A stretch of 64,000 nt of DNA, taken from IMG/VR virus record IMGVR_UViG_3300044645_001661, one strand, 5' to 3'. Below the pieces are notes generated by a model. It worked only from the letters and a program-made list of their open reading frames with translations, was not told where the DNA came from and did no database searches. The DNA is from a virus (Duplodnaviria > Caudoviricetes). Every line of letters starts with the position of its first letter. Position 1 is the stretch's first letter. Position numbers and translations under genes: made by a program. This document shows, piece after piece, positions 50,481 to 54,699 of this stretch.

Positions 50481-50661
50481 AGATAGATGTTATTAAAAAT
50501 ATGGAAGAAATTAAAAAACAATATCCAAATCCATCAGATTTAAACAATTTGTATGGGCACACTGATTTGGAAGGATTTTCAAAATATTTGGGTATAAATT
50601 ATGATACTCTTCTTGAAATAAATAAAAAAAATGCAGAAGTTATTAGAAATTCAAAGACGGC

Positions 50662-50690
50662 TTGACAGAACAAACATCTTGATGTATTAT
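50662..50690 (+). promoter_or_regulatory. Sigma70-type promoter for tRNA-Tyr
   Basis: TTGACA-17 nt-TATTAT. Confidence 0.8.
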
Positions 50691-50746
50691 ATACTTTGTT
50701 CAGGGGAGAGATCCACTGGCATTTAGGACTTTCCTACAGTCCTATC

Positions 50747-50828
50747 GGGTAGGTGTCCGAGTGGTTAATGGAGGTGGACTGTAAATCCACTGGCTCTGCC
50801 TACGGGGGTTCAAATCCCTCCCTGCCCA
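50747..50828 (+). tRNA. tRNA-Tyr(GUA)
   Basis: GGGTAGG/CCTGCCC acceptor; CT-GTA-AA loop; variable arm. Confidence 0.93.
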
Positions 50829-50830
50829 CC

Positions 50831-50859
50831 TTGACAATCAAATCCCGATCTGATATGAT
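50831..50859 (+). promoter_or_regulatory. Sigma70-type promoter for the pseudoknot, tRNA-Arg and tRNA-Asn transcript
   Basis: TTGACA-17 nt-TATGAT. Confidence 0.8.
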
Positions 50860-50862
50860 ATG

Positions 50863-50930
50863 GGAGTTGAGAGATCAACTGCGGCACTCCCCTTTGGTAG
50901 GTTCAGGAGTGGCGGCGATAGGAACCTACT
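50863..50930 (+). ncRNA. Candidate H-type pseudoknot leader RNA
   Basis: GAGA-tetraloop hairpin plus interleaved perfect 6-bp and 8-bp helices. Confidence 0.55.
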
Positions 50931-50934
50931 TTAT

Positions 50935-51008
50935 GTCTCAGTAGCTCAGTGGAACAGAGCAACCGCCTTCTAAGCGGTCGGTCGTTGGTTCGAATCCAAC
51001 CTGAGACG
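50935..51008 (+). tRNA. tRNA-Arg(UCU)
   Basis: GTCTCAG/CTGAGAC acceptor; CT-TCT-AA loop. Confidence 0.95.
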
Positions 51009-51033
51009 CTTGGAGATTTATTCTCCAAATTAT

Positions 51034-51105
51034 TCCCCTATAGCTCAACGGCAGAGCAGAGAGCTGTTAACTCTAAGGTTCCTCGTTCGAATCGAGGTGG
51101 GGGAG
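51034..51105 (+). tRNA. tRNA-Asn(GUU)
   Basis: TCCCCTA/TGGGGGA acceptor; CT-GTT-AA loop. Confidence 0.95.
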
Positions 51106-51362
51106 TCGGAAGGACTGGAAATGTCTGGGACTTCCTCTAAATCCTAACTTTTGTTAGGTCGGGGACTTGATCGCCCCCGTTCGTAACAGAAAACGCTGGA
51201 CAAACTTTGGAGGTATAAACCCTTGCAAGGTCTCCCACCCCATTTGGGTGCCTTCCTGAGAACAGGAAAAATAAGGTTTGGTGTTTTCTTTTATCACTGC
51301 CCTCTAATGCAGTGAAAATCGCAGAAAGTGTCTTCTGCGGGTGGTGGTCACTCACTACCCAT
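51106..51362 (+). ncRNA. Candidate multi-hairpin ncRNA immediately 3' of tRNA-Asn
   Basis: About nine consecutive hairpins; GC-richer than flanks; no credible + strand ORF. Confidence 0.6.
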
Positions 51363-51515
51363 TAACCTCTGGTATTCTATTGCTAAGGATATAGGTGTCA
51401 TAATGATTAATATTTTTAAAAAAGTTTATTTGAAGATAAAAGAATATATTGACTTTAAAAAAGTCTCTAAAAAATGTAAGGAAGAGGATCCATACATTTA
51501 TAAATAAAACTAAAA

Positions 51516-52298
51516 ATGTCTAATAACATATTAATTACATTTGGATGTAGTTGGACTTTTGGTGAAGGGTCTGGTTATGTTGATGGAATGAGTGAAGTTG
51601 AATATAAAAAAATTCAACATGATCCAAAAATATGTTACGAAAACTCTTGGAGAAAAGTATTAGTAGACCATTATAATTTAGTTCATATAAATTTTTCTGT
51701 CTCTGGAAGTAGTAATCAAAGACAATTTAAAACTGCTAGAGAATATTTCGTAACTGAGAAATGGAAAAAATTAATTAATAATCCTAAAAACAATGTGGTT
51801 GTTTTATGGGGAATTACTAGTACTTATAGAAATTATTTTTGGTGTAAAGATACTAGAAGATATGAAAATATTTTTTATAATTTAAAAGGAGATAAAATAG
51901 AATATAATAATTATCAAGATAAATTAGCAGAAGCAATGCTAAAGTGGTCTTATAACAGAGAAGTTGAAGTTGAAGTAATAAAAAACGAAATTTTGTTTTT
52001 TAATCATTATTTTAATCTAGTTGGAGTTAAAAACCTTTGGTTTGATACCTTTAATTTTATTAATTATGGAGAAAAATTTAATAATTTTTTAGATGAATCT
52101 TTAGAACAGAGAGATTTATTATCAATGCTTTGTTATGAACATGCTAGAAAATCTAATATTAAACTAATATTAGATAATAATTTTAAATATGCTGAAGAAA
52201 GTGGACTAATAAATTCTTTTAGTTATCATCCTAAAAAAGATCAGTATAAAATTATTGGTGAGTATTTTATTAGGAAACTTAAAAAATACTTTAAATAA
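51516..52298 (+). CDS. SGNH/GDSL hydrolase-like protein
   Basis: FGCSWT (block I), SVSGSSN (block II), YHP (block V); TATAAATA at 51499-51506. Confidence 0.6.
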   Translation: MSNNILITFGCSWTFGEGSGYVDGMSEVEYKKIQHDPKICYENSWRKVLVDHYNLVHINFSVSGSSNQRQFKTAREYFVTEKWKKLINNPKNNVVVLWGITSTYRNYFWCKDTRRYENIFYNLKGDKIEYNNYQDKLAEAMLKWSYNREVEVEVIKNEILFFNHYFNLVGVKNLWFDTFNFINYGEKFNNFLDESLEQRDLLSMLCYEHARKSNIKLILDNNFKYAEESGLINSFSYHPKKDQYKIIGEYFIRKLKKYFK

Positions 52299-52348
52299 AC
52301 CAATAAATAGTTGACAAAATAATTTGTCTCTGTTAAAATAAAATCATC

Positions 52349-52420
52349 GGGCGATTAACTCAGCGGTAGAGTGGCCTCCTTACAAGTGGTAAGTCACTGG
52401 TTCGATTCCAGTATCGCCCA
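52349..52420 (+). tRNA. tRNA-Val(UAC)
   Basis: GGGCGAT/ATCGCCC acceptor; CT-TAC-AA loop; one U-U mismatch in the anticodon stem; TTGACA-17-TAAAAT upstream. Confidence 0.88.
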
Positions 52421-52566
52421 TTATCAAATAGTACATATATAAATTATGAAAGATAAAAAATTCAAAAAATTAATTCAAAAACCTTTAAGATTTCATCATC
52501 AAGATATCCATGAAGAACTTGATAGTATTAAATTATCATTAGCAGATATTAGGAGATTAATGGAAA

Positions 52567-52824
52567 ATGTTAGTAGTGAGATGCAAAGATTGCAACAAAG
52601 AGTTGACAAGTCATCCATCTAAAACTCAGTGTTGTGGATGTTCTAATATGATGACTGTCTGTGCTGATAACATATCAGCCATTGATTTAACTAAAGTAAT
52701 TATTATTAATTCAAATAATAAAAAACCTCATAAAAAAACAAGTTTATTTTCTCCAGAAGAACTTGAGTATCAAGAATCTAGAAGAAAAAGAAAAGTTCGC
52801 AAATTAGATTTTGAAATACGTTAA
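52567..52824 (+). CDS. Small Zn-ribbon protein
   Basis: CKDC...CCGC. Confidence 0.65.
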   Translation: MLVVRCKDCNKELTSHPSKTQCCGCSNMMTVCADNISAIDLTKVIIINSNNKKPHKKTSLFSPEELEYQESRRKRKVRKLDFEIR

Positions 52825-52864
52825 ATCTTAACTAAATAAGAAAATAAAGTTTTCTTATTAACTT

Positions 52865-52951
52865 GGAAGGGCAATCCGATTGGCGACGGAACCTGTCTTG
52901 AAAACAGTTGAGGTGTTAAAGCCCTTGGGGGTTCGACTCCCCCTCCTTCCG
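52865..52951 (+). tRNA. tRNA-Ser(UGA)
   Basis: GGAAGGG/CCTTCC acceptor; CT-TGA-AA loop; long variable arm. Confidence 0.9.
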
Positions 52952-53437
52952 TTTAACAATTTTTTAATTTGTGTTATAAAATGAACACAATACATTGACG
53001 TTTAAAAATTAAAAACTATTATATAGTAGTACAACTACTTATAAACCCCAATGGATGATCATACTTACCAAAATTGGGTGAAGATTAAAGAAACCTTTGA
53101 GTCTTCTGGTAATACAAATAACATGTTTTATCGTAGGGCCTGTGAAATAGTAAAAACTAAAAGAGACCCTTTAGCAAAGTTTTTTGGTGATACTAATAAT
53201 GGATAAAACAATTATATCTGCAATAATAATTTTTACATTAATTGGTTTATTCATCAGATGGGGACTTACAAACGCATATGCGTAAGTAAAGATAATTTAA
53301 ATGGAGAGAAAGATGATTTTTCATATTGTAGAGACTCTTGCAGCGAGTCCAGTTTGGTTGTTCTTTTGCGGTTTTGGCTTGACAGTTGTTCCTTTTATGG
53401 GTATAATGATTATACACCGAGATAAATAATCTCATTA

Positions 53438-53511
53438 CGGGGTGTAGCTCAGTTTGGTAGAGCACTCGCTTTGGGAGCGAGATGTCGCAGGTTCGAATCC
53501 TGTCACCCCGA
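53438..53511 (+). tRNA. tRNA-Pro(UGG)
   Basis: CGGGGTG/CACCCCG acceptor; TT-TGG-GA loop. Confidence 0.95.
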
Positions 53512-53718
53512 TTAGTAAAATCTATGTAATTTTACTATTTAAAATTTTAGTTAATGATTTTTTATTAAATGGAATCGAAACAAGAAATTTCTAAAACTGA
53601 AACCATAGATTTTACTAATGAATCAAGTAGAGATGCATCAGAGACTGATATCAAAGAGTTGATAGAGGTCTTGACAAACCACAACGATGCATGTTAAATT
53701 TGATTTGTTGAAACACGA

Positions 53719-53793
53719 GGGACTGTCGCCTATTGGTTAAGGCCCACTGCTTATAACGGTGTGAACTGAGTTCAATTCTCAGCAGTCCTACCA
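53719..53793 (+). tRNA. tRNA with UAU anticodon (Ile), copy 1, CCA encoded
   Basis: GGGACTG/CAGTCCT acceptor; CACTG-CTTATAA-CGGTG. Confidence 0.88.
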
Positions 53794-53794
53794 A

Positions 53795-53866
53795 GGGAGT
53801 ATAGCTTAATGGTTAGAGCGGGCTCCTTATAAGGGCTTAGTCTGGGTTCAACTCCCAGTATTCCCA
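53795..53866 (+). tRNA. tRNA with UAU anticodon (Ile), copy 2
   Basis: GGGAGTA/TATTCCC acceptor; GGCTC-CTTATAA-GGGCT. Confidence 0.88.
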
Positions 53867-53896
53867 CTCACTATTCGCTATTTGCGAATAGCAAAT

Positions 53897-53969
53897 GCTG
53901 GTTTAGCAATCTGGCGAATGCAATCGACTCATAATCGATGGGAGGCGAGTTCGATCCTCGCAACCAGCA
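53897..53969 (+). tRNA. tRNA with CAU anticodon (Met, or Ile2 if lysidine-modified)
   Basis: GCTGGTT/AACCAGC acceptor; ATCGA-CTCATAA-TCGAT. Confidence 0.88.
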
Positions 53970-54045
53970 TGGGACAGAATCTACACTGTCCATCTTGACT
54001 TCTTCAAGTCAACCCTTTATAATACTAAGGTCAACATTCAAAACA

Positions 54046-54538: not shown

Positions 54539-54670
54539 CAGTACTGGTGGAGTCAAATGACCCTCATTTTGGTTTCTTGCTTTTCCATTAAAAAGCAAGT
54601 GGTGCGGATGGGACTCTCTCCCGCCTGGTTTCTTGCCTCCAGTCAAAGGGCAAGTGGCGAGCCTGAATTT
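54519..54670 (+). ncRNA. manA-like cyanophage structured RNA
   Basis: Two tandem GGTTTCTTGC...CCA...GCAAGTGG modules; next to tRNAs and upstream of sugar-metabolism genes; family assigned from memory only. Confidence 0.6.
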
Positions 54671-54673
54671 ACT

Positions 54674-54699
54674 AAGATGGGTAACTCCCATCTTTTTTT
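54674..54699 (+). terminator. Terminator after the manA-like RNA
   Basis: AAGATGGG-TAACT-CCCATCTT plus T run. Confidence 0.85.

Follow-up and report, generated by a model that had tools for sequence, protein, structure and literature searches.

The rnaD and rnaC genes of phage T4 are annotated immediately after the T4 tRNA-Arg gene. The ends of their products, small non-tRNA RNAs also known as the species 1 and 2 RNAs, depend on tRNA processing, and their function is still open. The leader of the T4 gene 32 mRNA contains a single-copy 5′ pseudoknot that is bound by a phage protein. The SAM-II, SAM-V, and preQ1-II aptamers are small H-type pseudoknots with invariant loops and a major-groove triplex, and GOLLD and ROOL are large phage-borne structured RNAs, often adjacent to tRNAs, that have no settled function. 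Infection by T4-like cyanophages kills a large fraction of marine Synechococcus and Prochlorococcus, yet few noncoding RNAs of these phages are known: CfrI, PhotoRC-II, wcaG, manA, and glnA. Papers that list cyanophage noncoding RNAs name abiF in addition to these five, but not the element described here.

In the window, the whole 64-kb stretch of DNA that was analyzed, this element is a hairpin followed by an H-type pseudoknot. Similar to the products of rnaC and rnaD, it is a small non-tRNA RNA beside tRNA-Arg in a T4-type phage, but rnaC and rnaD lie downstream of tRNA-Arg, measure 119 and 139 nt, and match it in neither sequence nor structure. Homology to them was rejected, as the covariance model of the element, R1, finds nothing in T4 70908–71171 and the best regional matches are noise located elsewhere. 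Like the gene 32 leader, it is a single-copy 5′ pseudoknot in a transcript of a T4-type phage; the gene 32 leader is tied to one gene, however, whereas members of the family described here stand in front of tRNAs and of more than 35 unrelated genes. GOLLD and ROOL differ in being hundreds of nucleotides long, in belonging to other host groups, and in being present in Rfam, whose models detect neither of them in the window, nor in 20 diverse loci of the family.

With SAM-II, SAM-V, preQ1-II, and the telomerase RNA pseudoknot, the element shares a compact H-type fold in which a pyrimidine loop 1 can run parallel to the purines of stem 2, an arrangement that suggests a triplex; the positions that would form it are invariant. 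It differs from the three aptamers in giving no Rfam match at E ≤10 and in its incoherent gene contexts. The placement is also reminiscent of MALAT1/mascRNA, in that a probable triplex RNA stops only a few nucleotides short of an RNase P site, at which tRNA processing would create a putatively protected 3′ end. MALAT1/mascRNA is eukaryotic, and its triplex holds an A-rich 3′ tail within a U-rich ENE, whereas here the triplex would form inside the pseudoknot, and what lies downstream is a genuine tRNA.

Rfam 15, applied at gathering thresholds to the window and the 20 diverse loci, contains no family for the element. At E ≤10 over positions 50600–51400, the only alignment over 50860–50934 is a spurious one to sX4, which tRNA-Tyr drives; the nonmatching models cover SAM-II, SAM-V, preQ1, glnA, Downstream-peptide, manA, wcaG, xrRNA, and ribozymes. 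Full-text literature searches gave no description of the element, although it may already be among the ~8,500 candidate structured RNAs that Fremin et al. 2023 cataloged from IMG/VR. The pseudoknot RNA is a cyanophage-specific structured family for which no description was found. Short and abundant in marine viromes, it is an addition to RNA family libraries and closes a gap in the annotation of at least 60 deposited cyanophage genomes.

Architecture of the Element

The best DNA matches of the window are Synechococcus and Prochlorococcus myoviruses, and its source is a T4-like cyanophage that has no high-identity counterpart in the phage collection. The window contains eleven tRNAs and one wcaG RNA (103 bits), as well as several consensus sigma-70 promoters, among them a sigma-70-type early promoter at 50831–50859 on the plus strand, the strand of all window features described below. 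This promoter is composed of TTGACA (50831–50836), a 17-nt spacer, and TATGAT (50854–50859), scores 11/12 in a promoter scan, and has a TG preceding its −10 element. The initial annotation had noted the promoter, a hairpin, two interleaved helices with loops of 6, 1, and 10 nt, and a 5-nt gap before the tRNA, and all of these coordinates proved correct to the base on rereading.

Overall, the element folds into a 5′ hairpin (P1), a CUGC junction, and an H-type pseudoknot of ~9 + 9 bp. P1 is GUUGA-GAGA-UCAAC, closed by a GNRA loop, at 50866–50879 and can be extended by an A50865–U50880 pair. The junction, CUGC followed by GG, occupies 50879–50884, and its CUGC is invariant. The first helix of the pseudoknot, S1, pairs CACUCC (S1a, 50885–50890) with GGAGUG (S1b, 50906–50911), the latter strand assigned by pairing and covariation. 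It can be extended across a G50884/G50912 mismatch by C50882–G50914 and G50883–C50913. Loop 1, CCUUUG, spans the six nucleotides at 50891–50896, of which CCUU is invariant. The second helix, S2, pairs GUAGGUUC (S2a, 50897–50904; GTAGGTTC as DNA) with GAACCUAC (S2b, 50922–50929; GAACCTAC as DNA), again with the 3′ strand assigned by pairing and covariation, and gains an extra G50896·U50930 wobble.

Loops 2 and 3 are read directly from the sequence as a single A at 50905 and the 10-nt GCGGCGAUAG at 50912–50921. The first three nucleotides of loop 3 are able to extend S1, and its GCGAUAG would cross the S1 minor groove. Because only 1–2 nt separate them, P1, S1, and S2 could stack into one ~24-bp rod. 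A spacer, UUUAU (50930–50934, likewise a sequence reading), leads to the RNase P site of tRNA-Arg(UCU) at 50935–51009 (70.3 bits), which begins 5 nt past the last pseudoknot pair. The next gene on the same strand is tRNA-Asn(GUU) at 51033–51107, identified by tRNA and Rfam calls.

Taken as a single sequence, the pseudoknot pattern is not beyond chance. Perfect interleaved helices of 6 + 8 bp occur in 14 of 20,000 shuffles of the segment (0.07%), and the same pattern is present in 60 of 5114 75-nt windows (~1%) of the AT-rich 64-kb window. The nested minimum free energy (MFE) fold of the segment, a method that is unable to represent a pseudoknot, does not differ significantly from shuffles (z = −0.70). 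The reality of the pseudoknot rests on comparative evidence. Calculated energies are −16.7 kcal/mol for P1 with S1, −15.2 kcal/mol for P1 with S2, and −19.8 kcal/mol for the nested MFE structure. With S1 and S2 contributing about −12 kcal/mol each as duplexes versus −19.8 kcal/mol for the nested fold, the knot is energetically competitive, and it appears thermodynamically plausible by these calculations.

Homologues and Covariation

Matches to the leader alone were found by BLAST in many isolates of ACG-2014f and in S-SKS1, SynMITS9220M01, S-SCSM2R, P-SSM2, and P-SSM5, as well as in S-B43, RB11-B, S-B05, S-H68, and several single-cell marine viruses. No annotated feature lies under the leader-wide matches in the deposited cyanophage genomes; in S-B43 and its relatives, the matches are short and partial and overlap the end of the preceding CDS. 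A pattern scan of IMG/VR gave at least 120 loci, which, when merged with the BLAST loci, yield at least 133 complete instances, 117 of them distinct. The IMG/VR members were retrieved by a fixed pattern, and the sample is therefore pattern-ascertained. A looser second IMG/VR pattern, aimed at unbiased variation in loop 3, returned one true member among the matches listed, the rest being chance.

Both helices covary. In the first alignment, S1 changes from CACUCC/GGAGUG to UGACCC/GGGUUA, a compensatory replacement, and S2 carries a matched one-base deletion on both strands. In a second alignment of 104 sequences (A2), 94.3% of the cells are paired, versus 20–51% in slid controls, and the observed covariation score was matched by none of 500 shuffles. 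Double-sided changes are seen in 12 of the 18 pseudoknot pairs, six in each helix, with helix 1 paired in 89.2% and helix 2 in 99.7% of cells. Within the core of S1 (CACUCC/GGAGUG), both sides have changed in five of six pairs, and in S2 the figure is six of nine.

An anchor-based, alignment-free analysis gave a consistent picture: the ten column pairs with the highest APC-corrected mutual information are predicted S1 and S2 pairs and one pair of the S1 extension. This extension pair, columns 20–50 of A2 (G50883–C50913 in the window), ranks second by mutual information and is found as GC in 76 sequences, UA in 26, and UG in 2. The S1a–S2a–S1b–S2b order that defines an H-type pseudoknot is thus present with support for both helices. 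P1 is maintained as a stem rather than as a sequence; a stem of at least 4 bp closing on the C of CUGC is present in 109 of the 117 distinct members listed, in 35 different stem sequences, and its loops among these members are mostly GAGA, GAAA, or AGAAAUA.

The initial annotation had proposed a small functional RNA with an H-type pseudoknot fold, which conservation and covariation strongly support, and had set conservation of the stems in related phages beforehand as the test; both stems are conserved there and covary. That a conserved pseudoknot RNA exists is virtually certain. A coding explanation, an ORF starting at ATG50860, was rejected because its frame is broken by 8-, 2-, and 1-nt indels relative to ACG-2014f. 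The core of the element is 50 or 52 nt long and the P1 region ranges from 14 to more than 35 nt, so the reading frame is not preserved. The unusually well-supported structure, together with its short length, makes the RNA easy to test at the bench.

One promoterless subfamily from IMG/VR (L020, L053, L060, L061, L075, L093, and L100) has a longer conserved segment in the ~50 nt 5′ of CUGC, AAAUUUGGGC...GGGUGAAACCC...GCCCC, in place of the simple P1. The AAAUUUGGGC...GGGUGAAACCC segment may represent a P1 that has become more elaborate or branched, or else an additional RNA element.

Invariant Positions and a Putative Triplex

Two segments that were absent from the search pattern are invariant in all 117 members listed, the CUGC of the junction and the CCUU of loop 1. 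The three junction-proximal pairs of S2, C–G, U–A, and U–A, never vary; these were fixed by the pattern in the IMG/VR set and are also constant in the BLAST-found set. Likewise, the invariant A of loop 2 was pattern-fixed and is invariant in the BLAST-found members too. Loop 3 is conserved in the BLAST-found members and was mostly pattern-fixed in the IMG/VR set. Because these bases sat in the search pattern, part of the invariance seen in the IMG/VR set, both for most of loop 3 and for the S2 junction pairs, stems from ascertainment, and the independent support for it comes from only ~12 distinct BLAST-found sequences.

In H-type pseudoknots, loop 1 occupies the major groove of S2 and runs parallel to the S2b strand. 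Given this polarity, CCUU placed over G-A-A has the right composition and direction for base triples. The sequence suggests that CCUU is probably the Hoogsteen strand of a C+·G–C / U·A–U / U·A–U major-groove triplex on S2. The invariance of the loops could reflect a constraint of tertiary structure alone.

Genomic Context of the Family

A promoter matching at least 10 of 12 consensus positions is found at the same place in 98 of the 133 members listed (74%). Its −10 element ends ~6 nt before P1, and the start site is predicted at the base of P1 on account of this spacing. Approximately 25 of the 133 members listed lack a promoter of their own and directly follow a CDS. In these, the last codons of the CDS form the 5′ strand of P1, and the stop codon falls within P1. 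As the 3′ end of the upstream CDS has been recruited into P1, selection acts on the whole module.

Downstream of the element, a tRNA gene begins 1–5 nt past the extended S2, most often 3 nt, in 66 of the 133 members listed: tRNA-Arg(UCU) in 52, tRNA-Pro(UGG) in 13, and tRNA-Thr(UGU) in one. The remaining members precede more than 35 unrelated CDS families, which include phrog_552, DUF7212, DUF6561, a Phd-like protein, a 2OG-Fe(II) oxygenase, PurM, and a phrog_3704 protein. The element had been annotated as the leader of a tRNA-Arg/tRNA-Asn transcript, a tie that does not extend to the family, as only about half of it precedes a tRNA. The frequent fusion to tRNA-Arg(UCU) or tRNA-Pro nevertheless links this RNA to the long-unexplained stable RNAs of the T4 tRNA clusters.

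At the non-tRNA loci, the start codon often lies 17–25 nt past the knot, and most of these loci have no terminator following the element. With no terminator and a start codon this close, the element would be a 5′ UTR there unless it is cut out. In the S-SKS1 and L016 types, the next gene has a consensus promoter of its own, the second at these loci, located past the element.

Several features of individual loci were also observed. Two ACG-2014f isolates, L001 and L002, have near-identical leaders followed by clearly different tRNA-Arg(UCU) genes (positions ~692–765), a pattern that suggests recombination at the leader/tRNA boundary. In S-SCSM2R (L007, positions 483–746), a deposited "VapB46 antitoxin" CDS overlies tRNA-Pro, and this gene call is doubtful; the downstream ORF detected in the same locus matches the Phd-like antitoxin PHROG phrog_375. 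The pseudoknot motif and wcaG occur together on IMG/VR contig L016.

Copy Number and Distribution

R1 detects one strong copy in the window, at 85 bits, with the next match at 14 bits. One strong copy is likewise found in each of five complete genomes: P-SSM2, S-SKS1, ACG-2014f, S-B43, and SynMITS9220M01. A second match in P-SSM2 (21 bits) lacks S1 and was rejected as a copy. Single copy number, together with predicted early expression, suggests a dedicated role in infection.

When one genome for each of 185,579 species was scanned for the exact pattern, 53 matches appeared, about the level estimated for chance, among which two are true motifs. These only true "cellular" copies lie on an 8.3-kb contig of a Verrucomicrobiota MAG (L151) and an 832-nt contig of an Acidimicrobiales MAG (L168), and both are most likely, or at least probably, mis-binned cyanophage DNA. 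A model search of 151 genomes from the family of a Prochlorococcus genome found no true copy; two 26.5-bit matches in these genomes lack CCUU, S1b, and S2 and were set aside as chance similarity. The pseudoknot RNA is phage-restricted, not cellular, and its distribution among cyanophage lineages is patchy.

Proposed Function and Alternatives

The reading tentatively preferred here, although we place it somewhat short of an even chance, is that of an autonomous, nuclease-resistant small RNA that is freed by RNase P and probably binds a protein. Transcription from the early promoter would begin at the base of P1, burying the 5′ end in a helix. RNase P makes the 5′ ends of tRNAs, and its cut at tRNA-Arg +1 would set the 3′ end, leaving ~4–5 unpaired nucleotides past S2; half of the family would gain its 3′ end in this way, shortly past a very stable knot. 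The predicted product is a compact RNA of ~65–70 nt with both ends protected, and the module would in effect be a small stable RNA gene that relies on tRNA processing, or on a neighboring transcript, to obtain its 3′ end. Through its invariant junction and loops it would then most likely bind a protein, with the RNA acting as a decoy or cofactor in early infection. Since almost no single-stranded sequence is available for antisense action, a protein is the most economical choice of partner, a small ligand being less likely; no partner protein or co-occurring gene was identified. Nuclease resistance and a processing link, both raised in the initial annotation, are plausible.

A more specific version holds that the RNA represents a new class of phage noncoding RNA, triplex-locked, with its 5′ end at the transcription start and its 3′ end made by RNase P, which serves as a stable early effector (a decoy or cofactor for a host or phage protein, or a new class of ligand-binding aptamer). 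This version is possible but doubtful. If true, it would constitute a viral prokaryotic counterpart of the MALAT1/mascRNA strategy and the first functional handle on the non-tRNA stable RNAs of T4-type tRNA clusters.

Next in order is a cis-acting 5′ domain whose flush hairpin and very stable putative triplex pseudoknot would protect the transcript it heads, a tRNA operon or an mRNA, from 5′-end-dependent decay by RNase E or RNase J, or aid processing or translation of the gene ~20 nt past it, the released leader itself being a by-product. Stabilization of mRNA by 5′-terminal stem-loops, as in ompA, is established. In 74% of the loci listed, the element coincides with the predicted start site; it lies 17–25 nt ahead of the start codon in many unrelated genes, and no terminator precedes the downstream gene in most non-tRNA loci. 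The missing terminators and close start codons, as well as the ~25 members without a promoter, count against an autonomous RNA. However, a general stabilizer would be expected on many transcripts and this element occurs once per genome, a simple hairpin would suffice and would leave the invariant loops and junction unexplained, and tRNAs shed their leader anyway. Moreover, the next gene has a separate promoter in some members, and others are embedded after a CDS and not at a 5′ end. The presence of more than 35 unrelated downstream families speaks against a gene-specific cis regulator, and the single copy, the promoter that the element often has to itself, selection on the whole module, and indifference to the downstream gene together argue against both a gene-specific cis regulator and a general stabilizer. 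We regard a cis-acting domain as a serious but rather unlikely explanation. Even if only a stabilizing cap, the element would still be a compact natural RNA-stability module.

A new riboswitch-like aptamer, in which triplex folding gates the access of RNase P to the tRNA or of the ribosome to the start codon, is unlikely. Its appeal lies in the SAM-II/SAM-V/preQ1-II-type architecture with invariant loops and a probable triplex, in the tight spacing to the tRNA (1–5 nt) or ATG (~20 nt), which could serve as a platform, and in the candidate riboswitches that cyanophages already carry, wcaG being in the same window. A riboswitch would be expected to precede a coherent set of genes, but the family precedes tRNA-Arg, tRNA-Pro, or tRNA-Thr and more than 35 CDS families, and the genes, from tRNAs to PurM, the 2OG-Fe(II) oxygenase, the Phd-like protein, and several DUFs, are functionally incoherent. 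In addition, the alignments show neither a conserved alternative pairing nor an apparent expression platform, the GGGAGU/ACUCCC alternative of the window is not conserved, and no Rfam riboswitch model matches at E ≤10. The ligand sensor envisaged in the initial annotation, at least in a gene-specific version, fits poorly with so many unrelated downstream families.

Two further roles seem improbable, each to a similar degree. In the first, the element would act in cis on RNA polymerase in the manner of put, the antiterminator RNA of phage HK022, promoting read-through of the structured tRNA cluster or of terminators. A promoter-proximal RNA of ~65–70 nt that occurs once per genome, tolerates any downstream gene, and always has more same-strand genes, never a terminator, downstream would suit this role. 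The proposal is a pure analogy, however; we know of no similarity between this RNA and put RNAs, and many tRNAs of the window have their own consensus promoters, which lowers the need for read-through. In the second, a specific version of a trans-acting role, the element would be an anti-defense decoy, an antitoxin-like RNA that neutralizes a host endoribonuclease or another RNA-binding defense protein. Type III antitoxin RNAs are triplex-containing pseudoknots, and phage restriction, predicted early expression, and patchiness among cyanophage lineages are in keeping with such a decoy. Against it, the element is a single unit rather than a tandem repeat array, its neighbors are tRNAs or assorted small ORFs with no adjoining gene for a toxin endoribonuclease as in ToxI-like systems, and no look-alike is present in the 151 genomes of the host's family. 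The antitoxin-like role suggested earlier has thus found neither the tandem repeats nor the adjacent toxin gene.

A small self-cleaving ribozyme that trims the transcript by the tRNA or gene is highly improbable: the invariant unpaired nucleotides of the pseudoknot would allow for one, and loop 3 (GGCGAUAGGAAC) presumably bears a loose resemblance to the HDV J4/2–P2 segment, but the nested double pseudoknot of HDV is absent, the single nucleotide between S2a and S1b (A50905 in the window, 1 nt in all 117 members listed) leaves no room for an HDV-like P3/L3/P1.1, and no Rfam ribozyme model matches.

The tRNA Cluster of the Window

The tRNA cluster at 50662–54023 (+) is composed of many small units and is not one operon. 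Near-consensus sigma-70 promoters of these units, with 11–12 of 12 matches, are located at 50662, 50831, 52311, 53379, and 53995. The leader of tRNA-Tyr at 50691–50746 (+) contains a small GAGA-loop hairpin and an AGGACU/AGUCCU hairpin; R1 gives no detection there, and the leader was rejected as a sister copy of the pseudoknot RNA. The region at 51108–51515 (+), extending ~400 nt past tRNA-Asn, is without a convincing ORF or an Rfam match above noise and contains several GC-rich hairpins, for example at 51320–51339.

The tRNA-Ser(UGA) gene at 52864–52952 scores narrowly over the Rfam tRNA-Sec threshold (48.8 versus 47 bits), a result that its long variable arm probably explains. Tandem tRNA-Ile genes at 53719–53793 and 53795–53867 (+) both have the anticodon UAU and are separated by 1 nt. 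The wcaG RNA (RF01761), a known cyanophage candidate riboswitch, is full-length (103 bits) at 54568–54668 (+), ~3.6 kb 3′ of the pseudoknot RNA, and is followed by a terminator-like hairpin at 54674–54694.
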